DNA of 64,000 nucleotides from a virus (taxonomy: Duplodnaviria > Caudoviricetes): positions 101,424-165,423 of the IMG/VR virus record IMGVR_UViG_2531839014_000003. One strand, given 5' to 3'. Below are positions 11,682-50,472 of this stretch, piece after piece. The position numbers and the translations under genes were made by a program. The notes under the pieces were generated by a model. It saw nothing but the letters and a program-made list of their open reading frames with translations, was not told the DNA's origin and made no database searches. Each line of letters starts with the position of its first letter. The stretch's first letter is position 1.

Positions 11682-12446
11682 ATGAGTAAAGAAAGAATAT
11701 GTGGAATCTATAAAATTGTAAATGAATTAAATAATAAGATGTATATAGGACAAAGTATTAATATATACGAAAGATGGAGACATCATAAAATCCAATTACG
11801 ACATGATAAACATCATAATTCTCATTTACAGAATGCTTGGAATAAATACGGAGAACAAAACTTCCAATTCGTAATCATAGAAGAATGCTCAGAGAGTGTT
11901 TTAGATGTAAGAGAAATATATTATATAACAAAATATAATACTTTTGTTCATTCTAAAAATGCCAAAGGATATAACCTATCTATTGGTGGCGAAGGTATTG
12001 GTATATTTACTGATGAAATGAGACAAATATTCAGAGAGGCTCAAAGAGCAAATCCTATATATCAAATAGACTTAGATGGGAATATAATTAATGTTTGGCA
12101 TTATGGAGCAAGAGAGGCTTCAAAAAAATTAAACATTTCACAAGCATGTATATGGCATTGCATAAATCATGATAGACGTACATATAAAAATTATATTTGG
12201 ATATACGTAGATGAATATGAATATTTTAAAATATCAGATTATGTCAATCAAAATACACAAGCAAAATCAATCTTACAATATGATATGTATGGAAATTTTA
12301 TTAAGAAATGGGATAGTGCAAATCAAACACATACATATGGATTTGATCCTTCTGCCATTGTAAAAGTATGTAAACAAAAGTATTCAAGTCATCGTGGATA
12401 TATTTGGTGTTATGAAGATGATGTCTATATCAAAACGGAAATATAA
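11682..12446 (+). CDS. GIY-YIG homing endonuclease with NUMOD1-like repeats
   Basis: GIYKI...YIGQS, ERW, GYN; two C-terminal IxQyDlxG...YIW repeats. Confidence 0.9.
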   Translation: MSKERICGIYKIVNELNNKMYIGQSINIYERWRHHKIQLRHDKHHNSHLQNAWNKYGEQNFQFVIIEECSESVLDVREIYYITKYNTFVHSKNAKGYNLSIGGEGIGIFTDEMRQIFREAQRANPIYQIDLDGNIINVWHYGAREASKKLNISQACIWHCINHDRRTYKNYIWIYVDEYEYFKISDYVNQNTQAKSILQYDMYGNFIKKWDSANQTHTYGFDPSAIVKVCKQKYSSHRGYIWCYEDDVYIKTEI

Positions 12447-12479
12447 AAACATTATTCAATTTTTAATATTCTGTATAAA

Positions 12480-12704
12480 TCTGCATTTGCGGACTATGTA
12501 ATTTTGGGACATTATCACTCTGGAAAAGAACTTACAAGCTGTGAAGGCTGTTGTAATGATGCAGAGATACTTGTTGCTCCATCATTCGTCGGAAGCGATT
12601 CTTATTCTGATTCATTGATGAAGGGAAGTAAACCTTCTGTCAAGATATATGGATTTCATGAACTTTATGGACATGACGAAACACATAAGATTATTTTGAG
12701 TTAA
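12480..12704 (+). pseudogene. Orphan C-terminal fragment of a metallophosphoesterase
   Basis: ADYVILGHYH...PSFVGSDSYS...PS parallels PDYVLCGHKH...GSLSGSGDDY...PS of 10171-11361. Confidence 0.75.
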
Positions 12705-12870
12705 AGCAAATTTTTATTTATCCAACTCGTGAAGGATAAGGCTGGGTTCCTGAATGGGAGTAGGTCGTAAGGCTTAGAAGTCCTTTGCCCCTGGTGTCGG
12801 ATTCACATGCATGGAGAGCGCACTGCTCTCCTACTATAAAAATAGAAACTATAAGGAGATTTAATAATAC

Positions 12871-13152
12871 ATGAACAAAAATGAAGTTGTTGCAGCAATT
12901 GTTGAAAAAGTAGAAACATTAAAGGCAAAGGATGTTGAAGCGGTATTAGCTACTTATGCTGATGTTGTTATTGAAAAACTTGAAAATAATAATGCTGAAA
13001 AGGTTGTTCTCCCTAGCCTAGGAAGTTTCAAAGTTAAGGATGTTCCAGAACGAAAGGGCGTATCAGCTCTCGGAGATAAAAAGGAATGGGTAAAACCTGC
13101 ACACAGAGAGATTATTTTTAAGATTGCCAAGAATGTAAAATGCCTAGACTAA
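12871..13152 (+). CDS. HU-family DNA-binding protein
   Basis: MNKNE..., LGSF, arm region ending PAH...FK. Confidence 0.88.
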   Translation: MNKNEVVAAIVEKVETLKAKDVEAVLATYADVVIEKLENNNAEKVVLPSLGSFKVKDVPERKGVSALGDKKEWVKPAHREIIFKIAKNVKCLD

Positions 13153-13366
13153 AATTAACTGGTGGTGATTTATTTGTACGATGAAGTAGTTAAGACTATA
13201 AATCTAACCTCTGATGAGGTAGAAATATTGATTGATGCACTCTCCTATCGACTAGCCCAGTGTGTATCAGTTGGCGAAGATATTACAGTACGAGAATTGC
13301 TGGAGAAAATTCAGTAAATATAGGCACTGTGAGAGTCAAATCTCATGGTGCTTTTTGTGAAAGGAA

Positions 13367-14410
13367 GTGATGAAAATATCAAGATTTACAGTCTATAATA
13401 AAATTGTTACACCAGAAAAATTGACAAAGGTGAATCCAGAAAACATTCAATTGGGAGAAGATTTTTTAGAATACCTTCAATCAATTGATAGAAGCCCAGA
13501 TACAATAAAAGGATATCGAAATGATCTTAAAATATTTTGGGTATGGTGTTTAGACTTCAATGGAAATAAATACTTTCCAGAATTAACTAAGCGTGAGGTT
13601 GCTAAATTTCAAAATTATGCTCTCAATACTTGGAATTGGGGTTCTAGTAGAATGAGACGTGTAAAGTCTTGCCTTTCTTCTCTTTCAAATTACATTCAAG
13701 ACATTCTGGATGACGAAAAAGAATTCGAAAATTATAAACCCATTATTCGCAAAATTGAAAATCCAGCCAAAACTGCCCGTAGGGAGAAAACTGTATTAAC
13801 TGATGAGCAAGTGGATGGGCTTTTAGAAACTCTTGTAGAGCGTAAGGAATATGAGTGCGCATGTGCTATTGCTATAGCTGCTTATTCCGGTATGCGTCAC
13901 GGAGAATTGTTGCAGATGCGACCAGACTTTTTTAACGATAACCATTTTGTATATGATTCCATGTGGAAAACAGATAAAGTTCGTGCTAAAGGGCACGGCA
14001 AGGATGGTTTACAGCTTAATAAATTCGTCTTATATGGTGCAAAACCATATATTGATTTATGGATGAATGAACGTAAGGAGAAAGGTATTAACAGTGAATG
14101 GATGTTTGTAACAGTTACAGTAAATGGAACTAAACGTATATGGAAAAAGAGAAAAGACACAAGTTCCTGGGTAAAACAATGCACAGAAATACTTGGTGTG
14201 GATTTCTACTTACACTCGTTGCGTCATTATACATGCACAAAGTTACATAGAATGAATCTACCTGCTCATGTTATTCAAGAGTTCTTCGGATGGGCAAGTT
14301 CTGAAATGCTTCAAATCTATAATGACCTTACTGCCGAAGATGAATTTGGAAAATATTTTACCAAAGATGGTGTCAAGGAAATTAAGCAAGGTTCATTGAC
14401 TGATATCTAA
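13367..14410 (+). CDS. Tyrosine recombinase
   Basis: SGMRHGE, HSLRH, FGW, Y motifs; SAM-like N-terminus. Confidence 0.9.
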   Translation: MMKISRFTVYNKIVTPEKLTKVNPENIQLGEDFLEYLQSIDRSPDTIKGYRNDLKIFWVWCLDFNGNKYFPELTKREVAKFQNYALNTWNWGSSRMRRVKSCLSSLSNYIQDILDDEKEFENYKPIIRKIENPAKTARREKTVLTDEQVDGLLETLVERKEYECACAIAIAAYSGMRHGELLQMRPDFFNDNHFVYDSMWKTDKVRAKGHGKDGLQLNKFVLYGAKPYIDLWMNERKEKGINSEWMFVTVTVNGTKRIWKKRKDTSSWVKQCTEILGVDFYLHSLRHYTCTKLHRMNLPAHVIQEFFGWASSEMLQIYNDLTAEDEFGKYFTKDGVKEIKQGSLTDI

Positions 14411-14666: not shown

Positions 14667-14738
14667 GGGTCTGTCGCCTAATGGTATGGCACTCGACTTT
14701 TAATCGAGTTAATGCTGGTCCGAATCCAGTCAGACCCA
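14667..14738 (+). tRNA. tRNA-Lys(TTT)
   Basis: GGGTCTG/CAGACCC acceptor; CTCGA-ctTTTaa-TCGAG; T-arm GCTGG-tccgaat-CCAGT. Confidence 0.88.
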
Positions 14739-15035: not shown

Positions 15036-15413
15036 ATGGGACTTAATTTACCCACTTTAGCACTTGTTAAAAAATATACTGATTTAAAAACATCTGTTAC
15101 TGATAAACAAATAAACGCAGCTGTAAACCAATACTTGGAAAATAATCCAGTTTCTCCAGGCGCATCACCTGAAGAATCTGCTCAAATAGGGGCCAATAAA
15201 CAGAATATCACTAATCTTCAAAATGAAATTGTTATGCGCTCTCCTGCTATCATTACAGAAGCTATAGGTACAGGTAAGGTAAGAATGGATGATTCATCAT
15301 TCGACTGGCTCTTTTTGTATGCCATTGGCGCAATAGAAAGCATGGCGGACTTCAAATCCGTTAGATGCAGGTTCAAATCCTGTGGGGGGTGTGTTTATGA
15401 TACGGCTCTTTAA
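15036..15413 (+). pseudogene. Probably truncated structural protein reading into a terminator half and a tRNA
   Basis: Strong SD; after ~15300 the frame runs through CTGGCTCTTTTT and a tRNA-like sequence. Confidence 0.5.
15319..15391 (+). tRNA. Degenerate tRNA with TCA anticodon
   Basis: GCGGA-ctTCAaa-TCCGT; GCAGG-TTCAAAT-CCTGT; acceptor and D stems mismatched. Confidence 0.55.
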
Positions 15414-36012: not shown

Positions 36013-38101
36013 ATGAACGATAGTTTCAAAATATTTCTTCAAGCTATTATTGACGATAGTAGTTTAACCAAAGTTCAAAAAGACTTAGCAAAAAAGAGAT
36101 TAGAAATCCAAGCTGATATTGATTTTTCAGATTTTGCAAAGAATAAGGCTGATATCGAAAAACAGTTTCGAGCGCTATCAGGAATCATTAAAGATATACT
36201 TGGAGATGCTGTTTCTGATAAACAAGCTGTTCAATGGGCCAAGCAGTATTATAAAGAAATTGAGTCCGGAGCCAAACAGGCTGTTAAAGAACAGGAAAAG
36301 CTAGTAAATGCTATGGCGAAAGGACGTGAGTCTTCAGAACAAGCACGTCAGGCAGAAGAAAAGCGCCATCAACTTGCCCAGGATAAAGCTGTAAATAAGG
36401 CGCTTGAGGAAGAATATAACCTACGCCAAAGAATTGCAAATAAGTCAAAAGAAATTCAGCTCGGAATCGATACAGAGAAATATTCAACCCAGATTGTCTC
36501 AATCCAGCAACAGTTAAGTAAATTTGGAATTGAAAGTGGAGAATCATTCTTACAAGCAAGTGCCGCATTGAAACAATTAGAGGCTGCTTATAATGATATG
36601 AAATTCTCTAGTGGTGATAAACGATTAGATTATGAAAAAGAATACCAGAAACTTCTTGAGAAAACAAAAAATCTCATAACACAAATTAAAAGCCAAAAGT
36701 CAAATGAGATAATTTCTAACGGAGACAATCGTCGTATATCCCTTATAAACGAATTAAACAATTATCTTCAAAAGAATACTGCCATGACTAAACAGTCTAA
36801 GCAGCAAATCATTGAATGGATTAATACACTTAATTCTGCTGATGATATGACAAGGGGTACTTTTGATAATCTCAGGGCGCAATTTAAAGGTCTGGATGCT
36901 GAACTGCGCGCAATGAATAAATTGGGATTATCCTGGACCGATAAATTCAAACAAGCTATTGAGAAGTTTGGTGGCTGGGCACTGGCCACTGGATCGGTTA
37001 TGGAACTTTGGCATTGGCTTAGACAGATGCCACAAGTGGTACGAGAATTGGATACAGAATTGGTTGATTTAAGAAAAACAACCACTGCAACTTCTAGTGA
37101 ACTGAAACAGTTCTATAGCGAATCTAATACTACTGCTAAACAACTTGGTGTTACAACAAAAGAAATAATTAGTCAAGCAAGTGAATGGTCAAGACTCGGT
37201 TATGCCATTAAAGATGCTCAAACTATGTCTAAAAATTCTGCCATTTTAGAGGCTATATCTCCAGATCTAAGTATTCAAAAGGCAACCGATGGATTAGTCA
37301 GTACACTTAAGGCATTCCGCTTGGAAGCAGATGATTCATTGGATGGTATTATTTCTAAAATAAATATCATTGGTAATACACAGGCAGTTTCTAATGGAGA
37401 TATTGTAGATATTTTAACCAGATCATCTTCTGCTATGGCCGCCGCAAATAATACATTAGAACAGACAATTGCGCTAGGTACGGCAGCGACAGAAATCACA
37501 AGAAATGCGGACGCTGTAGGGACGGCTTTAAAGACTATTTCCATGAGGATTCGAGGTTATGACGAAGAGACGGAAGAATATATAGGAAATATTGAGCAAT
37601 TATCGGGTGAAATAGCAAGCTTGACCAAATCTGCCTCTACACCTGGCGGCATCAGTTTATTTACTGATGATTCCAAAGACACATATAAGTCTACGTATCA
37701 AATTTTAGACGATATTAGCAAAATTTGGAATGAATTGACTGACAAAAATCAGGCTCAACTTCTTGAAGTTTTGGCAGGAAAACGGCAGGGGCAAATTGTA
37801 TCTGCTATGATATCTAACTTTGATACTGCGAAAACTTCGCTGGATTCCATGACAAACTCTGCTGGCAATGCTATGCAGGAAATGGAAGTAATTTATGATT
37901 CACTGGATTATAAATTAAATCGCTTGTCTGAAACTGGTACTGGTATTGCTCAGAATTTATTTGACAGAGATGTCATGAAAAATACTGTTGATGGATTTAC
38001 CACAATCGCTGAAGTTATCGATTTTGCCACTGAAAAGTTAGGTCTATTAGGTACATTATCCGTGGGCGCGAGCGGAATATTTGGCGCAAAGGGATTAGGG
38101 T
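36013..38101 (+). CDS. Tape measure protein, exon 1 (unspliced frame stops at 38109)
   Basis: TP901-type TMP core (EWSRLGY, VGTALKTISMRIRG, LAGKRQ). Confidence 0.9.
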
Positions 38102-38535
38102 TAACGTAAGTTACTCGTCATAGTTTACAAGCCCCCTACTACAAAATAGTGGGTGTTCTACGATTTGGTCGTTCATCGAGTAGACTAATCCTTGGATTTA
38201 AATCCTAAATAAGTCGAATATCGGGGGAAGCCGTAAGCCTATCAATTAGGTACTGATAACGCTGCAATAAAAGCTCCATGTGGGTGCGTTACAGCTAAGT
38301 ACAATTGTACAAAAATGGTGGTCCCGACGCGGTATATGTTTTACGTGTAGAATGTATATATCCATAATATATCGCGCGAGAGGCTGACAAGACATGGCCT
38401 GGTTTGATACCAGACTGTAATATACATGATCCGTAACCGTGGCGAAAGGCTGCGTGAAGCGAACAGGGGAGCGAACAGTAGTTGCTACTGCCCTGCTTAG
38501 TACAAATTATACACATCTATTTCTGGCTTGGAAAC
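38102..38535 (+). ncRNA. Group I ribozyme core (P1-P9), P7 imperfect
   Basis: P4 TCGGG/CCCGA; P5 GCCGT/ATGGT; P6 CGCGGTATAT/ATATATCGCG; R-like CGAGAGGCTG; P8; P9 CGTGGC-GAAAG-GCTGCG. Confidence 0.8.
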
Positions 38536-38550
38536 GGGAATGGAATTTAG

Positions 38551-38802
38551 TTATTCATTGGTTAACCATAAGCCTAACATATATGCTTCTGCCTTGGCTT
38601 TGTTAACCGGAGTTAATTTATTATATATAAAGAGAATGTCGTCCTGTGTTTTTATGTTTTCATCTTCGGCATAAAATTTTGACATGGTGATAAAAATATT
38701 GTAGATATTGTTTGGTGATGCATTCATTTCGCGGGCAAGACGATAGAGACTCCAACCACGTTCATGGCAAAGCTGTTTGATACGTTTCAATTCATAATTC
38801 AT
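38551..38802 (-). CDS. XRE-family HTH protein (possibly internally deleted)
   Basis: RIKQLCHERGWSLYRLAREM. Confidence 0.7.
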   Translation of the reverse strand: MNYELKRIKQLCHERGWSLYRLAREMNASPNNIYNIFITMSKFYAEDENIKTQDDILFIYNKLTPVNKAKAEAYMLGLWLTNE

Positions 38803-38904
38803 TACAAATTCCTTTATATATATTGTATCTGCTCTTCTATTTTGATAAAATTAATCTACACCCCTAACTTGACAAAATCATATAATAATAAATGAGGTGG
38901 TTAT

Positions 38905-39468
38905 ATGAATAAATATTTTAAAGTTGCAATGTTTTACACATCTTTTATACCACTGTGGATTACCATCTTGTTTATTGATGTATTAAGCCTCATAAGAGAT
39001 GGTTCTAATCCATATACAGAAATAATAGAAATAGTACTCATTTTATTAGGCCTTATCTTTTCCATACTAATTATTGCTAAGATGATTACTAACGTATCCC
39101 ATGAACATGGAGTTAGGTATAAAATCATAGACGCACAGCAAGAAACAGGAATAACATCTGAATTTTTACTTTCATATATACTTCCGCTTTTTGCTTTCGA
39201 TTTCACTCAATGGGACGGAGCAATTATGTTCTTGGTATACTATGGCATTTTAATGTTTCTATGTGTAAGAAATAATAATGTTTATGCAAATCTTATTTTT
39301 GAATTTAAGAGCTATAAGTTCTATAACTGTGAACTTCAATGGATTGCGGAGCCAGACGTTCCCACCACGCAGTCAATGATTATCAGTCAAAGCAATTTAT
39401 GCGCCAATAAAGGAAATACTGTAGAGATTATTTGCTTAGATAAACCATTCTATCTCACGAAGTCTTAA
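38905..39468 (+). CDS. KwaA-like multi-TM protein
   Basis: Four TM segments, EFLLSYILP; adjacent to KwaB-like gene. Confidence 0.55.
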   Translation: MNKYFKVAMFYTSFIPLWITILFIDVLSLIRDGSNPYTEIIEIVLILLGLIFSILIIAKMITNVSHEHGVRYKIIDAQQETGITSEFLLSYILPLFAFDFTQWDGAIMFLVYYGILMFLCVRNNNVYANLIFEFKSYKFYNCELQWIAEPDVPTTQSMIISQSNLCANKGNTVEIICLDKPFYLTKS

Positions 39469-40399
39469 GAGGCATGGACATAGGTACTTCACATAAGCTG
39501 TCTTCTGTCAGTTCTCGCTTTGCCTTACCACATATGCCAAGAGTAAAATTCTTGGCATTTTGGGGATTCGATAAATCAAACTTTTTATTCTTTTTATCAT
39601 ATGGTATTCCAAATATCTTTGCAAACTTTTCTCTGCTTGTTGGCTTTTTTAGATAGTTAACAACCTGAGATGAATAAGATATAAATTTTTTTGGTGTCTG
39701 TCCTTTATTTGCATAGGAAACGTATTCATCAAAATCTTCAATCATATCCATCGTTTCCAACTCATTTAAATGTTTTTGGCAGATTTTTTTATGAGAGTAT
39801 TCAAGGTTAAACACCGATTCACAATTCGAGTTTATCATATATATCGCATTACTATAAATAATAGCATCGAAACAACTTCCGAATTGAACCATCGGTTCAG
39901 TTACTTCAGCTAGTGTATTTAATCTTGACACAAAAACTGAACGTTTTGACTTTTTTAGATTAACAATTGGATTACGTTTAGTTAGCAAATATAAGTTACT
40001 ATCCTCTCCATCATCATTTTTGTATATTCCAACAAAAATGTACGCTCCTGCCTTAATCTCATCTATCTTTTTGGAATCATCATGGTCCTGTATATGCCGT
40101 AATAATGCTGCCCACTGAGTGTTTATAAGTTCATCACTCATATCAATTTTGTCAATAACTCCTTTTGAATTAAAACCTGTATATTTGATTACCTTTTCAT
40201 CAAAGGCTTCAATATTTTTTTCAAAAGTAGTTTTTTGACGAGATACAACTGTATTTATAAGATTAACTGGTTCAAAATATAATGGATAACATGTATACTC
40301 ATTCGGATGTGTCTTATGGTTATAATGGATTAGGAACAGAGACCATTTTGTAATTTTGTCTATTTGATTCAAACCCTCTTTTAAAATAGCATATGACAT
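39455..40399 (-). CDS. KwaB/DUF4868-like protein
   Basis: 314 aa; FDAII...ESVFNLE pattern; pairing with TM gene. Confidence 0.6.
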   Translation of the reverse strand: MSYAILKEGLNQIDKITKWSLFLIHYNHKTHPNEYTCYPLYFEPVNLINTVVSRQKTTFEKNIEAFDEKVIKYTGFNSKGVIDKIDMSDELINTQWAALLRHIQDHDDSKKIDEIKAGAYIFVGIYKNDDGEDSNLYLLTKRNPIVNLKKSKRSVFVSRLNTLAEVTEPMVQFGSCFDAIIYSNAIYMINSNCESVFNLEYSHKKICQKHLNELETMDMIEDFDEYVSYANKGQTPKKFISYSSQVVNYLKKPTSREKFAKIFGIPYDKKNKKFDLSNPQNAKNFTLGICGKAKRELTEDSLCEVPMSMPLKTS

Positions 40400-40540
40400 T
40401 GTAAACCTCCAAATATACCTACAGATTGATTCATATTAAATGCGCTATACCCCCTCCCTTATTCTACCATAATCCGACAAAATCTGGTAGCACTATTTTA
40501 AATACCATACAAGTAAAGTTATATTTTGTTATCTAATAGA

Positions 40541-40564
40541 AAAGAGACTATTTCTAGTCTCTTT
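40541..40564. terminator. Bidirectional hairpin, cassette boundary 1
   Basis: AAAGAGACTA-tttc-TAGTCTCTTT. Confidence 0.8.
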
Positions 40565-40626
40565 AAAAATCACTCTTGCAGTGATTACAATGCCATTGCT
40601 TACTTGCTTTTCCAACAGCAAATACA
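40563..40626 (-). pseudogene. Zn-ribbon gene 3' remnant 1
   Basis: VFAVGKASKQWHCNHCKSDF*. Confidence 0.7.
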
Positions 40627-40660
40627 CAACGACTAAAATATGTAGCAAAGGAATAAAATT

Positions 40661-40819
40661 ATGGATAAAGAAAAAGAAATTAAAAAAGAAGACTTAATCA
40701 ATCAGTTTGAGTTGTTGAAAAAGTCTTCCGATGAAGTATATAAAAATCGAGAATTTGATTCATTGTCAAAATTGAGTATGGCAATGATTGAGTTATACAA
40801 GACTATTATGGCGTATTAA
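40661..40819 (+). CDS. Small hypothetical protein
   Basis: AAAGGA SD; MDKEKEIKKEDLINQF, 52 aa. Confidence 0.55.
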   Translation: MDKEKEIKKEDLINQFELLKKSSDEVYKNREFDSLSKLSMAMIELYKTIMAY

Positions 40820-40986
40820 CCGCTTATTTGCCAGAGATATAATGGTATTACTCTTAAAAATAGTGTGACTAGTGTTTAGGAGTAAGTGTGTTATCAAAAG
40901 TGTGACTTGTGGATAACATACAAGACCACCAATATTGCGGGGCTTAGTGTGACTAATGCTCCGCTTTCCATATTTTATAATTATTT

Positions 40987-41010
40987 AAAGACACCAATTA
41001 AGGTGTCTTT
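40987..41010. terminator. Bidirectional hairpin, boundary 2
   Basis: AAAGACACC-aattaa-GGTGTCTTT. Confidence 0.85.
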
Positions 41011-41015
41011 TAACG

Positions 41016-41075
41016 TTACCATTTCGCTCCACAGTTTTTACATTTAAATTGACTTCTAGCTGTTTTGATAAACAA
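41016..41075 (-). pseudogene. Zn-ribbon gene 3' remnant 2
   Basis: LFIKTARSQFKCKNCGAKW*; last 9 aa identical to the 45326 gene. Confidence 0.8.
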
Positions 41076-41199
41076 TAGCTTTTGGTGCACTTTTGTTCAC
41101 CTTGCTATATTATTACGCATTTTTTTGTTTAACTTGATGGTGTTCATTTTCCAAGAATTGTGTATAATATAAGTAAGGAATCTTATTTGATTCTGTTTC

Positions 41200-41322
41200 G
41201 AGACATGGTTCAGGAGTGTCTGGCTAAAAATAACCTGAAAATATTGCGAGGGGTTTATTGCTGTCACCTGGCTAATAAAAAAGCAAAAAATTATGTAGGA
41301 AGCAGAAATGCTTCCTATTTTA
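41200..41322 (+). ncRNA. Type III antitoxin RNA (two pseudoknot units) plus terminator
   Basis: AGACA/TGTCT with TTCAGG/CCTGAA; AGG/CCT with TTGCT/AGCAA; shared CTGGCTAA; hairpin TAGGAAGCA/TGCTTCCTA. Confidence 0.72.
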
Positions 41323-41334
41323 CTAGGAGATAAA

Positions 41335-41823
41335 ATGGGAACTGCTATATATTGTTACATAGTTAATCAATTTTATTTAGATTATCCTCACCTTAAGAAT
41401 ATACTGGATGAATTTGATGAATCTAAACATAATGTAAGAACCCATTTGTGCCTAAATCTAAAATATAACAATTGTAACGTATTAGTACCGCTAAGGAAGA
41501 AACTAGGTGAACCTGTAAGAGTATTCGGAAGAATAGGGTTTTCGGTTCCAAGTCAATCCAAGCCAAATGCTGGTTTAGATTATAGATATACAATGATAAT
41601 AAATAATCCAAAATATTTTAGATATGATATTCCACGAATAACGAACAAACAACAATTGATTATAAATGAAAATTATAATATAATTCAGAAACAAGTTATC
41701 GAGTATATTGATTCATATGTTAAAGTAGCAAATAAAGACAGAGTAGATAAAACCGCACGATTTCGAGTTTCTAGTTTAATAAATTTCAATTCTGAACTTA
41801 ACGTAAGGCTAAAGACACCTTAA
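41335..41823 (+). CDS. Type III TA toxin (ToxN/TenpN-like endoribonuclease)
   Basis: LVPLR, GLDY..MII motifs; repeats-terminator-toxin layout. Confidence 0.78.
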   Translation: MGTAIYCYIVNQFYLDYPHLKNILDEFDESKHNVRTHLCLNLKYNNCNVLVPLRKKLGEPVRVFGRIGFSVPSQSKPNAGLDYRYTMIINNPKYFRYDIPRITNKQQLIINENYNIIQKQVIEYIDSYVKVANKDRVDKTARFRVSSLINFNSELNVRLKTP

Positions 41824-41834
41824 CTGGTGTCTTT
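41811..41834. terminator. Bidirectional hairpin, boundary 3
   Basis: AAAGACACC-ttaact-GGTGTCTTT. Confidence 0.85.
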
Positions 41835-41847
41835 TTATGATTAATTT

Positions 41848-41910
41848 AAAATCACTTTTACAATTATTGCAATGCCATTGTTTACCAACTTTGCCCATAG
41901 CAAATACACC
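41848..41910 (-). pseudogene. Zn-ribbon gene 3' remnant 3
   Basis: GVFAMGKVGKQWHCNNCKSDF; homologous to remnant 1. Confidence 0.72.
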
Positions 41911-41930
41911 ATATCGTAGTACCACCTACT

Positions 41931-42659
41931 TTATTGGATTATTTTTACCACCACACCAATAATCTGATACTCATCGTTTGAGTAAGCTCTTCTATCATCT
42001 TCAATGCATTCTTCATTGTCGGATGAAAACCAAATACAATCCTCTCTGGGTTTATACCGTTTACAGAGTATATCGCCTTTAAAATTTGCTATTACAATTT
42101 CATTATCAAGATTGAATTCGTTGAATTTTGGATTAACCAGTACAAGTGCACCGTTTTGAATACCAGGTGACATACTTTCACCATTTATCCTGACTCCATA
42201 TACTGCTTCAGATGGAATATCGTCTGATACAATATCCTCCATTTGGTACTCGCCGTCTCTACCGAGTATACCTGCGCCGGCTGCGGCCTCTTGGTCATAA
42301 ACAGGAAAACGATAAATACTTTTACTATTTATTTGATTATCCGAAGTGTCTACAAAACCAAAAATAAAATCAACAATCCTTCTATTAGACATAGAAAGAT
42401 TATTGTAGGCATCTAAAATACGCTGATCTTCTTTTGATAAGGAATCAGCAATATATTTTAGCTCGTCTTTCATAAAATAGTGTGCATCTACCTTTAGCTT
42501 ATTACATATTTCGATAAAATCATTGTAAGTGGGCCTATTTTCCCTATTTTCGTAGGCAGATATGGTTTTTACACTGACATTTATAATTTGAGCCAATTCC
42601 TTTTGAGTAAGATTGTTCTTTTTTCGATATTCTTTTAGTCGGCTTCCAAAATCCATCAT
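41931..42659 (-). CDS. CI/LexA-like repressor (XRE HTH + S24 peptidase)
   Basis: HTH; AAAG cleavage site; GESM serine; CKR lysine. Confidence 0.9.
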   Translation of the reverse strand: MMDFGSRLKEYRKKNNLTQKELAQIINVSVKTISAYENRENRPTYNDFIEICNKLKVDAHYFMKDELKYIADSLSKEDQRILDAYNNLSMSNRRIVDFIFGFVDTSDNQINSKSIYRFPVYDQEAAAGAGILGRDGEYQMEDIVSDDIPSEAVYGVRINGESMSPGIQNGALVLVNPKFNEFNLDNEIVIANFKGDILCKRYKPREDCIWFSSDNEECIEDDRRAYSNDEYQIIGVVVKIIQ

Positions 42660-42707
42660 AATCTCCTGTCCGTATGGAATACTATTATTATAAGCTAATT
42701 AGAGAAT

Positions 42708-42789
42708 AAAGTCTATAAATAATATCCTTTATGTTGACATTCTATATTTAGTAGATTATAATAGTAAAAGTATATAATTTATAGACTTT
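42708..42789 (+). promoter_or_regulatory. Consensus sigma-A promoter flanked by 13-bp inverted operators
   Basis: TTGACA 42734, N17, TATAAT 42757; AAAGTCTATAAAT 42708 / ATTTATAGACTTT 42777. Confidence 0.8.
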
Positions 42790-42862
42790 ATTTTACATGG
42801 TAGGGGCATATTTAAATTGATTTACTTGGTATAATCTGGTAGAATGAAAGGAGTACGGAGGT

Positions 42863-44395
42863 ATGGGAATGTTAAAATCTATTAGTTTAGAAAATTATAA
42901 ATGTTTTAAAGATGAGACTACAATCGATATTGCCCCACTTACGGTATTGTGTGGGGCTAATAGTTCTGGAAAATCTTCTATATTAAAAAGTTTACTAACA
43001 CTAAAACAAAGTGTACAAAGCAATAATTCTGAAGACTATCTAACATTAAATGGCGAACTTGCTGATATTGGTAACTTTAATGATATAATGTCAAGATGTT
43101 CTAGTAATAATATATCAGATACATTTGAAGGTTTGCAATTAGAAGATATAAAATCTAAAGTAATTTCATTTGAAAACACTTTTAGAATTAACAACTATCG
43201 AAACAAAAATATTGGTAAATATATACCTTATCAAGATGCAGCTTCTTATAAAGAATTAAGAAGATTATATAATAAAGAGCATTCCCCAATTAATTCATTT
43301 GAAATAACACTGAAACTTAATATCTCTTTACCTGATGATGTAGCCGATGATTCTTTCTCAAAATTTATATATTCAAATCATTTAGTAAAATATAAAATCA
43401 ATATCAAACTTTTTGACATAAATAATTGTGAAATAACTAGGCGTTCTGGAGTTATCGAATATGAAAATAATATTTTACATTACGAAAACATACCAACCAA
43501 CAATTCTATTAGTGAAAAAGGACACTTGAAATGTAAATGTAGTTTTTCATCGTTGAAAATAAATAATATATATTCAAATTTTTTTGAAGACTATAAATCT
43601 GTATTATATAATATAATGGCTATATCAAAAATTGCCTCTAATCAATTTCTAGGTATTAATTACATTGCTCCTCTTAGAAATAATCCTGAACGTGATTATT
43701 TTATAAAAGGCAACTCAAATACTGTTGGAATTTATGGTGAATTTACACCTACAATAATTGCAAAAAATGTAAATGAGGATATTTCTACAGAAACTTTTCC
43801 TCCTATTTTTGAAGACTGTTTTTTAAAACATGATATGGAGTCTATAAACTTTTTCCATCTCCTATTGCAGTGGACTGATTATTTCAATTTTGGTTCATTG
43901 ACTCTTAATGGTACAAATGGGCATATTGATTTAAAAATTGGAGAGCAAAATATTGTTGATGTCGGGTTTGGTGTTAGTCAAGTATTACCAATAATAGTAC
44001 AAGGACTTATTATGGATAAAGAGCAGTCTTTATTATTAGAGCAACCAGAGATACATCTACACCCAAAATTACAAATGAGAATAGCAGATTTTTTTATTGC
44101 AATGGCACAGTCAGGGAGAAGTTTAATTATTGAAACACATAGTGACCATATAATAAATCGTATAGTTAGAAGAATACTTGAAGATAATACTAACACGATA
44201 AATGATTTAGTTCATATATATTATTTAGAAAAGGAAAATAAATTTGAGCAAACAAAAATAACTCCCATTAAAATTGATTCCTGTCGTGGTATTATCGATT
44301 GGCCTGACGGGTTCTTTGACCAATTTCCGAATGAACAGGAAAAAATCATACGTGCTGGTATAGAAAAAAGAAGATATCTTCGTGAAAAAATCTAA
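42863..44395 (+). CDS. ABC-type ATPase (AAA_15/21 + DUF3696-like)
   Basis: GANSSGKS, VGFG, LLLEQPEIHLHP, ETHS, WPDGFFDQ. Confidence 0.88.
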   Translation: MGMLKSISLENYKCFKDETTIDIAPLTVLCGANSSGKSSILKSLLTLKQSVQSNNSEDYLTLNGELADIGNFNDIMSRCSSNNISDTFEGLQLEDIKSKVISFENTFRINNYRNKNIGKYIPYQDAASYKELRRLYNKEHSPINSFEITLKLNISLPDDVADDSFSKFIYSNHLVKYKINIKLFDINNCEITRRSGVIEYENNILHYENIPTNNSISEKGHLKCKCSFSSLKINNIYSNFFEDYKSVLYNIMAISKIASNQFLGINYIAPLRNNPERDYFIKGNSNTVGIYGEFTPTIIAKNVNEDISTETFPPIFEDCFLKHDMESINFFHLLLQWTDYFNFGSLTLNGTNGHIDLKIGEQNIVDVGFGVSQVLPIIVQGLIMDKEQSLLLEQPEIHLHPKLQMRIADFFIAMAQSGRSLIIETHSDHIINRIVRRILEDNTNTINDLVHIYYLEKENKFEQTKITPIKIDSCRGIIDWPDGFFDQFPNEQEKIIRAGIEKRRYLREKI

Positions 44396-44410
44396 GGTGG
44401 ATTAATTTCT

Positions 44411-45298
44411 ATGAATTTAATTTTCGAACCTGATAAACTATTTACAACTATTGAAGTATGGAATAATGAAGTAGAACGGGATACATTTTTAAGCTCATTA
44501 TTAGATGTCTTAGATTATGTAAATAACCATGATGATATTTACATTTTATGGAATGATGAAATTGCTTCTTTATTGTGGGAAACAAATATACATCCCTGGA
44601 AATTAGATAAAAGTTTCTATAAATCAATTATGCCTAGTATTTCTCATATATTATATAAAAACACACTAGAAATATCGTTAGAAACTTTTGACCATGTAAT
44701 GGAATGTAATCCAGATTTTACAATAGATATTGCAGATATACACATCAAAGAGAATTTTTATCACATGTTGCACCAGGTTATTCATAATAACGAGGTGCCA
44801 AATATTTTGGTTACAAGTAAAAATGATAAAGAATTTAATTTGATTTGTTTCAATGTAGAAGATTCTATTATACCGTTAGTTTTTACCAATTTGACAAATG
44901 ATTTCGTGATTGATAATGAATTTGACAAGGCGTGGGGTAGCCTTTCATCATCTTGTATTATAGAATTAATTAATAAAGTACATAACGAAATGTACTATAC
45001 AGATAAAGTATATCTGTATGATTTTTGTTTTGATTCAAAATTTATTAAAGATATAAAATCTATTAACTCAACAAAATTAAGAATAAAAATCATAACTCAG
45101 ATAATTAAAAAACTAGTGTTTTCATTTACAATCACTCAAAATGATAAATCGTTAGATGATGAAATGATAGGTGAATTTACAGGTAGATTTAGAATATCTC
45201 AAGGAAAACGAATAGAATATATTTATCAAAATAATCAAATTATATTCACACGTTACTATTCTGAAAGCCAGCATGATGAAGGAATACGGCATACATAA
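44411..45298 (+). CDS. Putative effector with C-terminal RelE-like domain
   Basis: FDSKFIKD...RFRISQGKRIEY...HD; operonic with ATPase. Confidence 0.45.
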   Translation: MNLIFEPDKLFTTIEVWNNEVERDTFLSSLLDVLDYVNNHDDIYILWNDEIASLLWETNIHPWKLDKSFYKSIMPSISHILYKNTLEISLETFDHVMECNPDFTIDIADIHIKENFYHMLHQVIHNNEVPNILVTSKNDKEFNLICFNVEDSIIPLVFTNLTNDFVIDNEFDKAWGSLSSSCIIELINKVHNEMYYTDKVYLYDFCFDSKFIKDIKSINSTKLRIKIITQIIKKLVFSFTITQNDKSLDDEMIGEFTGRFRISQGKRIEYIYQNNQIIFTRYYSESQHDEGIRHT

Positions 45299-45322
45299 AA
45301 GACACCAAATTAAGGTGTCTTT
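45298..45322. terminator. Bidirectional hairpin, boundary 4
   Basis: AAAGACACC-aaattaa-GGTGTCTTT. Confidence 0.85.
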
Positions 45323-45325
45323 TAT

Positions 45326-45760
45326 TTACCACTTAGCTCCGCAATTTTTACATTTCATTGTATTTCTAACATCGCTGCTAAATAATCCAAACATGGCACC
45401 TCCAAACGCTTTCTTAGTCATTGAAATTTTCTCTATGTTTGTTGAACCGCAAGTTGGACACTTTGGTGTATTATCAATCTTCTGCTTTAATGGAAGGTTG
45501 ATAACACTTGGTATTTCTTTTTCCTGTATAATTTTTTCTACTACTGGTTTTACATGAACTATATCGCTTTTACTAATCTGAATTAAATCTCTTACTTTAT
45601 ATAAAACACTGTATGACTCGTCTAATAAAAAAGATAAATCGTAATCAGTACCATTTACTTTACATATGTTGTTATTATTAATTGGATATCCGCAATGTAT
45701 ACATTTATCTGATTTATCAGAAACCTCTTTACCACATTCTGGGCAATGAATTAGTGACAT
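45326..45760 (-). CDS. Double zinc-ribbon protein
   Basis: GGAGGAG SD, ATG 45760; CPECG, CIHCG, CPTCG, CKNCG. Confidence 0.85.
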   Translation of the reverse strand: MSLIHCPECGKEVSDKSDKCIHCGYPINNNNICKVNGTDYDLSFLLDESYSVLYKVRDLIQISKSDIVHVKPVVEKIIQEKEIPSVINLPLKQKIDNTPKCPTCGSTNIEKISMTKKAFGGAMFGLFSSDVRNTMKCKNCGAKW

Positions 45761-45829
45761 ATAATACTCCTCCAATATAATTATATTGTTCCAAGCTCTA
45801 TATTTATATTTTATCAGAATTTACAATCG

Positions 45830-48800
45830 TTGTAAACAATGACGCTGATAAAGGCTGGACTACTATATTTAGCAAATTCAAAAAAGAAATTCCTGAAATA
45901 AGTTCAGAAGTTAAGGAATTTATTGATTTACTGAATTCCGACCCAAATAGTAAATTGTGGAAAACTGATGAATTAATAAATTTTGCAAAAGAATGCAAAG
46001 TAACAGATAATGATTTTATTAAGTTCCTATCAACTGCCGACACATCTGGCGATTTAATGGTACAGTATCAGAAACACTTGCAATCCGCTTCCACCGCTAC
46101 ATCCAAATTCGGTGCAGCCCTAAAATCAGCCGCCGCTAATATTGGTATTATGTTGGCAATAAATGTTGGAATATGGGCCGCTGGTAAAGCTTGGGACTAC
46201 TTTGTTAACCGTGTTGAAAATCTCAGAAAAGCAGCTGAAGAATCTGCAAAAAAGTATTCTGATTTAGAGACAGAAATCAGTTCCATTAATTCAGAATTAG
46301 AATCTACGAGTAAACGTATTGATGAATTAAATAAGAAAGAGCATCTTACATTTGTTGAACAGGATGAACTTCAAAAGCTCAAAGAAACTAATGAGGAATT
46401 AGAACGCCAATTAGGAAACCGAAAAGCTTTAGCTAATGTTGCCAAGCAAGATGCGAACGAAAGGGCAAAGGAATATTTTGACAGTCAAGGTTCCGGAACA
46501 AGATATGCTGGTTGGGATATGTCACAAGTTGAAGTTGGAAATACCACATATGGTCAGGCCATTCCAGACATGTATTTTGGAAATCAGCTTGAAGTAGCCA
46601 AACAGAAATTAGATGACTATGAAAACCTACTTCAGCAAAAGGCAGATGTTGAAAAACGCTTATCAGATTACCAGGTGTCCAATCCAACAAATTATGAAAA
46701 ATCAGACGAATACCAAAATATAGTCTTAGAATCAAACGCAATTAGCAATGCTCTTGATGTACTAAAAAAGAGTCTTACTGATTCCATAACAGACTTCGAT
46801 AAATTTGATGACAGTTTAGATTTGGAGAATGATAAAGCTTATATTGATTCACTAAAAGAAATTTCCGATGGATATCAGAATTTATTTGGTGGAGGAAAAT
46901 CTGCAACCCAATCCTTTGACGACATCTGGAACGCTGATACATTCTCCAAAGCACGAAAAGAACTCGAATCAATGGCTCAGGCCGGAACCCTCTCCCCTGC
47001 AACTTTAAGCAATAACGAAACCTATAACCAGCTGTTAAAAGAAACAGGGAAAACTGCTGAGGAAACCTGCGAAAATATTTATGCCTTAGTTGAAGCCGAA
47101 AAATCAGCAAGTAATGTTGCTAAGTCAAGTTCTTTCACTGATATCTTCTCTTCTCTTCCAACCGATAAGCTTGAGGAATATATTGCCCTTGTTAAAGATG
47201 GAGTAATTGACGAAAAGACGATTGGAAACTATGAAGAGTTATCCAAAGCAATGTCCCAAACTGGAACATCTGCGGAAGAAGCAATCAAGGCAATCAAAGC
47301 TTATTCAGAAGGTTTTAAATCCTCAACTGAACTTACACAACACATCCAGGAATCCTATGACCTTCTTACAAAGATACAAAAGGAAGTTGATAAGACAAAA
47401 CAGGTTAGTCTAGATTCCTTAAACTCTATTGCCAAACAATATCCAGAACTTACAACTGCAACAGCGGAATATGCCCAAGGTCTTATTTCAACAGCAGACT
47501 TAATGGCCTTGTTAGAACAGGCGTATAACAATGATGCAAATGCCTTCAGAACTGCTATGGCTGCAAAACTTGATGGTAATGAAGTATTCTTTAACACCAT
47601 TAAGCAGAATAACGAGGGGTTATTTACTGCTCTGGCTAAAGCGTATGGCGTCGATGTTGGCAACTGGAAATCCATGGCTCAAGCCAAAGCTGAAATAGAC
47701 CAAGCATTAATACAGAAACTTGGAGCTGCATGGGGACAATATTATGGTGTTGTAATTGACCAGGCAACAGGTCTTGCATCTCTGATTAATAAGACTCCAA
47801 CGACTGGCTTAACAGCAGAACAGAGTGTTGACCTAATAGTTGCACGTACAAATGCAGAGTCAATAGTTAGTTCTTTTAACCATGCTAAAGAGGCAATGGA
47901 CAAAGCGGCACAGATTGAAGTTAACTTGCCTAATTTTGGTGGTATTGGTGGCAAATCCGGTTCCGGAGGCTCCAAAGGTTCCAAAGATAAAGAGCCTACT
48001 GAATTTGACTGGATGGAACAGAAAATCACCAATCTTGATTCCCAAGTAGATAAGCTCAAAACAAATATAGAATCTCTTGTCGGCTACAGGAACAAGAACT
48101 CCATGACCCATACTGCTATTGATGTACTGACGGAAAAGATGACAGTCCTTCAACAGATGCATGATGAGTATATGAAAAAGGCAGGTGGACTTGGCTTATC
48201 CCAGGAGTATATTGATAAGATTCAGAATGGCACTATTGAGATAGAAACAATCAGTGACGAAAATCTTGCGAAGGTCATTAAGGAATATCAAGACCTGTAT
48301 GGCAAAGCCAGTGATGCGAATAAACGGATTCTTGAAACTAAAGATGTTATCCATAACCTCAATTTATCCAAATTGGATCATATCATAAACCAATTTGAAC
48401 AGATGACGGATATCCAGTCTAAAATGATTGATACCGAAAAGCAGCTTATAGATTTACGTGAAAAATCCGGAGAAGAAATCTATGCTGATGACTATATCTC
48501 ACTTGCTGGTAAACAGTTAAAGCTAACTCGCCAGAATGCAGATGCTTATAACACTCTCGCTGCTGAAATGGAAAGTATGGATTTACAGGAAGGTACGGAA
48601 GAATGGAAGAAATATAACGACCAGTTACAAGAATACAAGAACAATATGATTTCTGCTGCGGATGCCATAGAGCAATATAAAGATTCAATGACGGATTTAG
48701 TCTATAAGGGTCTTAGAGACTTTACAAATACAATGGATTCCATCAATGGAACCATCAGTACAATGAATGACTTAATCGGAAACACTAATCTTGTTAATGA

Positions 48801-50472
48801 ATTTGGAAGTTTAACAGACCGTGGATTGGCCCAAGTTGCTTTATATGCCCATCAGATGTCGAACGCAAAACAGGAAGCTGCTGAATATGCAGAAGCTATC
48901 AATTCGCTCGACGATGCTTTAGATAGCGGATTAATCACTCAGGATGAATACAACTCAATGCTCCAGGAGTACACTTCTGCCCAGGAAAGCGCCGTAAAAT
49001 CAAGTAAAGAAGCCATGGATGCAATTCTTACTCTTGCCAAAGAAGGTATACAAGCTGAAATCGATGCGAAGAAAAGGCTGATTGACGAGACTAAAGCGGC
49101 TCTTGATGCCGAAAAAGATTTGCATGATTATCAGAAATCAATTACCGAGAAACAGGACAATATTTCAAGGTTGGAACGTCAAATTGCAGCCTTAAGTAAT
49201 TCCACCAATCGTAATGACATAGCCCAGAGATTACAGCTACAAAGTCAATTGGCAGACGCAAAAGAAGAATTATATGAACTACAGTATGACCATGAAATTG
49301 AGCAGCGTAAAAATGCTCTGGATGATGAGTATAATGCGTTTGAAGAATCCAAACAAAAGGAATCTGAAGAACTTGATACAAATCTGGATGCACAGAATGC
49401 AGCTATCAACAAATATCTTGACCAGGTAAAAAACAACTACTCTACTGTCTACGGAGTCCTGACCCAGTATGGAGATGAATATAGTCTAGCGGCTATTGAG
49501 GACCTTACCAAACCATGGGAATCTGGAAGTGAAGCAGCTGATTTATGTGCAAACGCAATTGGCGATGCAGTAGCAAATATCCAGTATGAAATTGATGGTC
49601 TTGACTTTAGTCCGCTTTATGAACTGGTAGATTTACTCAATCAGATCGGAATGGGTGGATACGGTGGTGGTTCTTCTGGTTACGAAGATGTAACTGACCA
49701 AGGAAGATGGCAGAAAGGCAAGGGTGGAAAATGGTGGTATGGAAACTCTAATGATGATTATGTCTCAGGAGATATTTATACCATTAATGGAAAACAGTAT
49801 GGCTTTGATGATAATGGATATATGGTGACAGGATGGCGTGACGACTTTGGAGATTGGCGATACTTTGAACCAGAGAATGGTGAAATGGTTAAATCCCAGT
49901 GGCGCAAGTCCCGCGATAATCAATGGTATTATCTTGATAAAGATGGTATCATGGCTACCGATATGGCTGTTAAGGCTAGGGAAAAGGATGGATATTATTA
50001 TCTTGATGATGATGGCAGGTGGGATGGAGATACATTAACTGCTGAGCAGGTTAGAAAACTTGGATATACAATTGGGTATAAAAATGGTACAAAACGTATT
50101 TCTCATGACCAGCTTGCGTGGACTCAGGAAAACAAACCTGAACTAATTACACGTCCAAGTGACGGAGCTTTATTGACTCCACTGAAATTAGGCGATGGCG
50201 TAATAAATGGGGATTTGACTCAGAACCTTTTAGATATCGCTGGAAATCCGAATAGATTTGTTGAAGATATTGTCGCTCGGTCGATGCCTAATTATAAGAT
50301 ACCAGAATTTGATATAGTGCGGAATCAACCCGTGGCAATTAATTCCCCTCTTGTACAAATTGACGGTACTGGTCTGTCCGCTAGTGAAGTCTCTGCAATC
50401 ATAAAGAATGAAACCCGTGATATTGATAAACGGGTTGCCAAAAGTATTAGATATGAACTGATGGGTAAATAA
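45830..50472 (+). CDS. Tape measure protein, exon 2, with cell-wall-binding repeats near C-terminus
   Basis: Frame open from 45781 with no SD/ATG; coiled coil; WWY/YGFD/WYYLD repeats. Confidence 0.85.

Follow-up and report, generated by a model that had tools for sequence, protein, structure and literature searches.

Within a provirus record of the IMG/VR collection (IMGVR_UViG_2531839014_000003; estimated completeness, 91%), the analysed stretch of 64,000 nt (positions 101,424 to 165,423 of the record), hereafter referred to as the window, harbors a phage tape-measure gene that is broken into two pieces by an insert of 7,728 nt. Comparative sequence analysis suggests, with a probability of about 0.7, that this insert (38102–45829) is a single group I-type self-splicing intron residing in the tape-measure gene of a Lachnospiraceae prophage. 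The estimate refers to predicted RNA splicing in cis, and would be somewhat higher if splicing in trans were included. Judging from its relatives, the group I-type intron family with variable cargo, to which the insert belongs, is real and statistically well supported. The first-pass annotation of the window had interpreted the locus as a 5' group I-type ribozyme equipped with a P1 helix, a long P10 guide, a helix that closes a large loop, and variable cargo, and the comparative evidence supports each of these main elements. Covariation of the fold, of P1, of P10 and of the closing helix was demonstrated, as were the terminal G, the restored reading frame and the variability of the cargo.

The split of the tape-measure gene reported in the first-pass annotation was confirmed, with the break at 38101/45830. 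The first piece (36013–38109) encodes 698 aa and contains a PhageMin_Tail domain, as identified by Pfam. The second piece, the frame of which is open from 45781 to 50472, aligns with the distal parts of the continuous 2,700–3,000-aa tape-measure proteins of related phages. It had been described as devoid of both a Shine–Dalgarno sequence and an ATG start; indeed, no Shine–Dalgarno sequence was found for this piece, and its earliest in-frame ATG, GTG or TTG codon is a TTG at 45955, located 42 codons past the join. Exon 1 (36013–38101, plus strand) comprises 696 codons and one additional base, and its end, the 5' splice site after U38101, is set by P1. The predicted intron (38102–45829, plus strand), the ends of which are derived from P1, P10 and the terminal G, has G45829 as its last base, and direct reading of the sequence verified the in-frame TAA noticed just inside it (38107–38109, two codons into the intron). 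Exon 2 (45830–50472, plus strand) is an unbroken frame of 1,547 codons. Joined, the two exons give 2,243 codons in one frame with the junction KGLG-F-VNND, which reproduces the join and the protein length of 2,243 aa predicted earlier. The C-terminal part of the tape-measure protein contains choline-binding (cell-wall-binding) repeats at 49813–50070, corresponding to residues ~1329–1414 of the exon 2 piece.

The insert starts with a structured RNA of about 430 nt, spanning P1 to P9.1. RNAalifold analysis of 16 distinct sequences yielded P2 (38135–38142/38146–38153), P2.1 (38157–38165/38174–38184), and P3 (38212–38216/38385–38389) enclosing P4 (38221–38226/38322–38327), P5 (38230–38234/38315–38319) and P6 (38328–38336/38368–38376), as well as P8 (38399–38403/38406–38413), P9 and P9.1 (38436–38501), all on the plus strand. 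P1 and the P7 pseudoknot (38380–38384/38425–38432) were placed by hand on this result. Across the 16 sequences, 96.2% of the fold cells are paired, compared with 31–47% when partners are slid, and 37 pairs show double (compensatory) changes, compared with 4–11 in the slid controls; none of 500 shuffles matched the observed values. P2 and P2.1 are backed by pair counts and compensatory changes, P9 and P9.1 by compensatory changes, and both P6 and P8 co-vary. The group I-like core had initially been located at 38211–38495, and the comparative fold places P3–P9.1 almost identically, at 38212–38501.

The order of the helices (P3-P4-P5-P4'-P6-P7-P3'-P8-P7'), the P3/P7 pseudoknot and a bulged A in P7 correspond to the group I arrangement, a likeness that was judged from established knowledge of the family and independently of any model match. 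The 5' strand of P7 reads G-A(bulge)-G-R-C and the 3' strand G-U-C-C, with two additional bases in the 3' strand of the subfamily that includes the window; the two strands could correspond to the guanosine-binding site, in which a G-C pair comes after a bulged base. The G.U pairs present without variation in P3, P4 and P5 identify the sense strand as the RNA strand. When the core of the window was compared with that of its nearest relative, found on the contig labeled L055 (L-numbers denote related viral and Lachnospiraceae contigs), changes were detected in 4.8% of the paired and 12.5% of the unpaired columns, and the pairs altered since the two sequences split still pair, with the exception of one A.A in P3.

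The splice sites are defined by an internal guide at 38116–38134 (plus strand), which consists of a P10 part (38116–38130) followed by a P1 part (38131–38134). P1, in which GGGU (38098–38101) pairs with GCCC (38131–38134) and leaves a U.G pair at the splice site, is present just as originally proposed and co-varies among the relatives, where GGGGU/GCCCC, GGAU/GUCU, GGGU/GCCU and the wobble swap GGGGC/ACCCC are found. The splice-site pair is U.G in 13 of the 16 sequences and C.A in the other three, and the pairs adjacent to it co-vary. In L038, L045 and L058, exon 1 ends in C, which is paired with an A of the guide; among group I 5' splice sites, C at this position is a rare variant. According to the literature, the last exon base at this site is U and, exceptionally, C (PMC4227781).

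The P10 part of the guide is complementary at 14 of 15 positions to 45830–45844, directly after G45829, as had been observed before; by chance alone, the window should contain 0.01 matches of this kind. Thirteen introns, ranging from 993 to 7,728 nt, were available with both ends in hand. In all of them the last intron base is G, and the 15 nt located directly 5' of the P1 guide form 12–14 Watson–Crick pairs with the exon 2 of the same gene, so that P10 is much longer than is usual for group I introns. Compensatory changes in P10 were found between lineages, in four of them. Splice sites that were picked without reference to the reading frame restore long open reading frames (ORFs) in every case, and do so in two codon phases. 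The first-pass annotation had proposed covariation between the guide and the 3' exon in related phages as a check, and such covariation of P1 and P10, accompanied by variable cargo, is what the related phages display.

In the L037 type, which has a different guide, an exact search for the exon 2 predicted from the guide, with up to two mismatches allowed, gave no forward match. When wobble pairs were tolerated, the best match in the 17.6 kb of downstream DNA searched was located 4.1 kb away, after a G and precisely where a 2,310-aa frame begins, with a score of 9 and a small margin over the runner-up (8.3). One further element of the early model, a P9.0 pairing between 38428–38430 and 45826–45828, was abandoned, as its 5' half lies within the assigned 3' strand of P7 and the partner bases do not co-vary. 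Guide bases 38120–38125 can also pair with 38505–38510 (plus strand), an internal look-alike of the exon-2 start situated just before the closing helix described below. This 6-bp helix is 92.7% paired, and two of its pairs show compensatory changes. Its role may be to sequester the guide until transcription has reached the distant 3' exon; alternatively, it may mark an older 3' splice site.

The ribozyme and the 3' tail of the intron are connected by a perfect 8-bp helix, in which 38526–38533 pairs with 45789–45796 (both on the plus strand) and which closes the cargo loop. It co-varies at two positions, and its versions in the relatives are GCUUGGAA/UUCCAAGC, ACUUGGAA/UUCCAAGU or ACUUGCAA/UUGCAAGU. 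In 11 of the 13 introns the helix is found 39–43 nt upstream of the 3' splice site, irrespective of the cargo length. The distant pairing suggested in the first-pass annotation to loop out the cargo was therefore retained as regards these eight co-varying base pairs, while its TTCTG/CAGAA extension is lost in L055 and was given up. The intron of L055 is minimal (993 nt); its comparison with that of the window revealed 90% identity over the first 444 nt and 82% over the last 151 nt, and everything between these two parts is cargo.

The relatives place the insert in a wider pattern of tape-measure gene interruption. Among 35 viral contigs with relatives of exon 1, about half have a single continuous ORF of 2,700–3,000 aa, and the remaining ones are interrupted at three recurrent positions. 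The inserts at the two upstream positions are 0.8–2.1 kb long and mostly carry sense ORFs that resemble homing endonucleases of introns, with DUF2726, DUF4379 treble-clef zinc finger or CapR domains. Such upstream inserts were located at L003:11534–12910, L022:2555–3997, L024:235–1511, L028:6751–8089, L029:7887–10003, L033:10763–12418, and L035:10628–11402 and 11865–13647; some related tape-measure genes hold three inserts. At the position occupied in the window, the inserts span 0.9–7.7 kb.

A search with a 22-nt block common to the window and L035 detected the core motif at 23 additional loci in viral contigs and at 10 in the genomes of Lachnospiraceae, all of them at the homologous tape-measure site. 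Overall, about 35 further copies of this RNA were identified in contigs of gut phages and Lachnospiraceae. The variable accessory or defence cargo expected in related phages was encountered, since the other introns carry differing gene sets: a GNAT domain with a MazF-like toxin, DUF2513, a PDC-S45 trypsin-like candidate defence protein, DUF3800, an S24 repressor with a GmrSD/NsnA-like enzyme, or ORFs of unknown function only. The cultured strain Mediterraneibacter hominis NSJ-55 carries a 5.7-kb member of the family on contig NZ_JACOPF010000001.1, which makes the question directly testable; the cargo of this intron has no Pfam or PADLOC match, so that defence cargo is not universal in the family. 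In the Lachnospiraceae contig L064, two copies of the core (1877–1898 and 7089–7110, minus strand) lie 5.2 kb apart, with the same exon-1 ends and different exon-2 continuations, and could represent tandem tape-measure genes or an assembly artefact.

At the DNA level, the window and L055 resemble each other only at the ends of the intron and in the adjoining ~70 nt of exon 1 and ~300 nt of exon 2, with the rest of the genes at background identity. This distribution suggests transfer of the intron together with short exon flanks, and local constraint on the protein could contribute to it. The exon 2 products of the two are 32% identical and dS is saturated, which renders dN/dS of exon 2 uninformative in this comparison.

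A separate, unrelated intron family is found near the same tape-measure site (L002:12108–17791, L003:13398–18832 and L018:13397–18064). The R and S elements of this family look canonical, and it possesses a separate 14-nt guide as well as 4.7–5.7 kb of cargo that includes an S24 repressor and a GmrSD/NsnA-like enzyme. The 3' boundary of this family is ambiguous, because the 14-nt guide match has no G directly before it and an in-frame alternative after a G exists.

In every intron, the last gene before the 3' splice site is an antisense zinc-ribbon gene, which is homologous in four intron lineages, and the L002-type family likewise ends with an antisense zinc-ribbon gene. In the window, this gene (45326–45775, minus strand) encodes a 149-aa protein that matches phrog_2546 and has an invariant CPxC...CxxC module. 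Its putative promoter (45808–45836, minus strand; TTTACA, a 17-nt spacer and TAAAAT with TG) spans the 3' splice site. The −35 box is located in exon 2, and thus the bases that pair with the RNA guide double as a promoter element on the opposite strand; the conserved bases near CAGAA fall in the −10 region of the same antisense promoter. The AlphaFold model of the zinc-ribbon protein has a pLDDT of 62, and in the protein atlas it matches only unnamed zinc-ribbon clusters. No homing endonuclease of the LAGLIDADG, GIY-YIG, HNH, His-Cys or PD-(D/E)xK type was identified by Pfam in the cargo of the window. The first-pass statement that a homing endonuclease gene is absent agrees with this result; it nevertheless overlooks the ever-present antisense zinc-ribbon ORF, which may belong to the element.

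Based on these data, a course of events can be proposed, in which we infer that the RNA is catalytic, when the genes are expressed and how the cargo is of benefit. The peripheral loop after P9.1 would have grown to about 7.1 kb, and the genes that it holds on both strands have promoters of their own. In the lysogenic state, the late tape-measure gene would be silent and the cargo expressed from its own promoters. During lytic growth, the late transcript would cross the intron, and the TAA at 38107 would halt ribosomes before they reach the ribozyme core. An external guanosine would then attack after U38101, held by P1, while helix 38526–38533/45789–45796 would close the cargo loop and draw in the 3' tail. 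The 15-nt guide would pair with the start of exon 2 to form P10, G45829 would enter the G site, and the joining of the exons would give the 2,243-aa protein. The long P10 and the closing helix may be adaptations to a 3' splice site located kilobases away, and an essential gene interrupted in this manner might serve as a neutral, locked-in harbour for accessory genes.

A broader proposal, which we regard as tentative, is that the family is a distinct group I-type ribozyme lineage turned dedicated cargo carrier. The long P10, the closing helix and possibly the look-alike of the guide target would allow splicing over many kilobases, and the zinc-ribbon protein could act as a factor for mobility, for maintenance or for splicing. 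In this way, phages that infect gut Lachnospiraceae would keep exchangeable defence or toxin modules in an essential late gene, where the modules would be expressed in the lysogen and lost only by precise deletion.

Several observations weigh against splicing of the window insert in cis. The covariance-model search suggested in the first-pass annotation failed: Rfam RF00028 had no match on the window, the bare core or the relatives, either at the gathering score or at E-values up to 10, and the sole RF00028 match in permissive Rfam scans, the whole provirus included, has 14 bits, is located elsewhere and is not meaningful. The same model also misses the L002-type intron despite its canonical-looking R- and S-like elements. 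Among the 16 sequences, no variation occurs in the catalytic helices P3, P4, P5 and P7, which therefore have the support of pairing alone and none from covariation; such invariance is common in catalytic cores. In addition, the last pair of P3 is broken (A.A) in the window, and the P7 3' strand of its subfamily contains the two extra bases beside the presumed G site. Transcription of the pre-mRNA would have to pass a terminator-like hairpin in sense orientation (41811–41834, plus strand, inside the intron) and several antisense genes. Searches of viral and metagenome contigs for either predicted junction, as well as of exon-2 relatives, detected no intron-less allele, and no bacterial or phage precedent was found for a 7.7-kb intron with about nine genes. 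Of these points, the terminator hairpin, the P7 bulges, the lack of an RF00028 match and the lack of an intron-less allele keep two rivals alive, a non-splicing relic and splicing in trans.

According to the former, the RNA is real, but the 7.1-kb cargo, the terminator and the weakened P3 and P7 block splicing, and the prophage is either tail-defective or makes two separate tape-measure proteins. The A.A pair specific to the window, the bulges of its subfamily, the terminator, the missing intron-less form and the 91% completeness of the provirus record would all suit such a relic. Yet exon 2 is unbroken over 1,547 codons and has neither a start codon nor a Shine–Dalgarno sequence near its beginning, the terminal G, the 14/15 guide match and the perfect 8-bp closing helix are intact in the window, and several other long-cargo introns (4.1–6.4 kb) keep the same features. 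The P7 variant is probably functional as well, because it is common to four diverged sequences. A non-splicing relic is judged unlikely. Splicing in trans, in which a 5' half (exon 1 and the core, up to the internal terminator) and a 3' half (transcribed from a cargo promoter, e.g., that at 42734–42762, into exon 2) assemble via the closing helix and P10, seems more improbable still. A strong sense promoter and a sense terminator are indeed present within the intron, and a 15-nt P10 and an 8-bp helix would suit the assembly of two molecules; however, P10 and the closing helix are also present in the short members (993–1,344 nt), which have no need of such assembly, and a hairpin at 45298–45322 may stop transcripts from the cargo promoter. 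The least probable explanation, which we give very little weight, is a DNA element that is excised or transposed before late expression, with the inverted repeat 38116–38130/45830–45844 as its ends. The guide and its target do form an inverted repeat in DNA, and the similarity to L055, confined to the intron ends and short exon flanks, shows past transfer at the DNA level. On the other hand, the repeat lies within the element at its left end and beyond it at its right end, an arrangement at odds with terminal repeats, and the helices are kept via G.U pairs and compensatory changes, as would be expected for a sense-strand RNA. DNA-level excision was rejected, as there are no direct repeats at the ends and no transposase or recombinase was identified in the Pfam, PADLOC and PHROGs scans of all cargo ORFs. 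Splicing of the insert as an RNA in cis remains the preferred interpretation.

Group I introns in tape-measure genes have been described previously. The Bacillus cereus group harbors TMP-IVS1, TMP-IVS2 and TMP-IVS3, in which a stop codon is also found soon after the 5' splice site (PMC2504315), and the splicing of a tape-measure group I intron of Vibrio phage ICP1 was demonstrated by RNA-seq and RT-PCR (PMC10448857). The window intron shares with them an essential tape-measure host gene, recurrent insertion sites, an early stop codon and a U.G P1 with a site-adapted guide. Whereas the Bacillus cereus-group and ICP1 introns are short, and either empty or furnished with one or two homing endonuclease genes, that of the window is 7.7 kb long and has about nine genes distributed over the two strands, among them the conserved antisense zinc-ribbon gene but no recognisable endonuclease, together with a 15-nt P10 and a helix that closes the loop. 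Neither blastn nor RF00028 revealed any sequence or covariance-model similarity of the window intron to known introns, and blastn of both intron boundaries against deposited phages gave no match.

IStrons (CdISt1, BcISt1 and relatives) combine a 5' group I ribozyme with cargo before the 3' splice site (PMC4227781). As in the window, a long non-ribozyme stretch separates the P9 domain from the 3' splice site, and a large insert leaves the RNA, which for the window is a prediction. IStrons owe their mobility to their cargo, a transposon of the IS200/IS605 or IS607 type with a length of about 1.5 kb, and RF00028 was the model with which their ribozymes were found. In contrast, the window intron has no transposase, its cargo is variable and of the defence type, it occupies a single tape-measure codon site, and RF00028 is blind to its core. 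With the defence hot spots of prophages and satellites, the family has in common variable, independently promoted defence genes at a fixed place. To our knowledge, these hot spots lie between genes, whereas that of the window is inside an essential gene and would be harmless only through RNA splicing. Literature searches yielded no description of a group I intron, of phage or bacterial origin, that carries several defence genes as cargo.

If the intron splices, a segment of 7.7 kb that comprises about nine genes in both orientations can be excised by a ribozyme from an mRNA of the bacterial type, which is far above the known sizes of phage introns. Self-splicing introns could then carry anti-phage defence systems in addition to homing endonucleases or transposases, an essential virion gene could be a protected site for accessory genes, and the introns of structural genes would be a new place to seek defence genes. 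They would likewise offer a model from nature for the insertion of large payloads into genes that are not disrupted thereby. The long P10 and the closing helix provide testable predictions on how a distant 3' splice site is found.

With its 7,728 nt and about nine genes on both strands, the window intron is the largest member of the family found; those of its relatives measure 993–6,357 nt. The cargo begins with a gene for a small HTH regulator of 83 aa (38551–38802, minus strand), which matches phrog_8 and, under the curated cut-off, Pfam HTH_26. It is followed by a gene for a KwaA-like membrane protein of 187 aa (38905–39468, plus strand; PADLOC KwaA, E-value, 1.9e-15) and one for a KwaB-like protein of 314 aa (39455–40399, minus strand; Pfam KwaB, 5.8e-08; PADLOC KwaB, 2.3e-06). 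As these two genes are convergent, they do not constitute a canonical Kiwa operon.

Gene remnants were recognised by internal repeats and tblastn at 40563–41075 (minus strand). The repeat at 40563–40627 is shared with the S24-repressor-bearing cargo of other introns, from which it appears to be a remnant of the 3' end of an S24 repressor gene, the second repressor gene of this cargo. The segment 40987–41075 corresponds to the C-terminus of a second zinc-ribbon gene together with a terminator hairpin. Downstream, a 171-aa protein (41308–41823, plus strand) matches phrog_8049, and a LexA/CI-like repressor of 242 aa (41931–42659, minus strand) has HTH and S24 peptidase domains (Pfam, 6e-20 and 2.2e-14, respectively). 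The promoter of the repressor gene is divergent from the NsnB-like (Menshen) operon (42863–45298, plus strand), which is preceded by a sigma-70-type promoter at 42734–42762 (plus strand) with a 12/12 match to the consensus; in the proposed model, the LexA-like repressor would control this operon. The operon encodes an AAA_15/AAA_21 ATPase of 510 aa (PADLOC NsnB, 7.8e-74; Pfam AAA_15, 6.1e-24) and a 295-aa partner, which matches no PADLOC or Pfam model; NsnA and NsnC were not found in the window by PADLOC.

One hairpin, with the stem AAAGACACC and its complement, occurs in three copies (40987–41010, 41811–41834 and 45298–45322) that bound the cargo modules. Two of the three copies follow the end of a zinc-ribbon gene, one intact and one a remnant. 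The copies may act as recombination points for module exchange and, along with the repressor-gene and zinc-ribbon remnants, point to build-up of the cargo by recombination or to its earlier turnover. Elsewhere in the window, two phage tRNA genes were detected by Rfam at 14667–14738 and 15326–15383, with scores of 66 and 33 bits, respectively.

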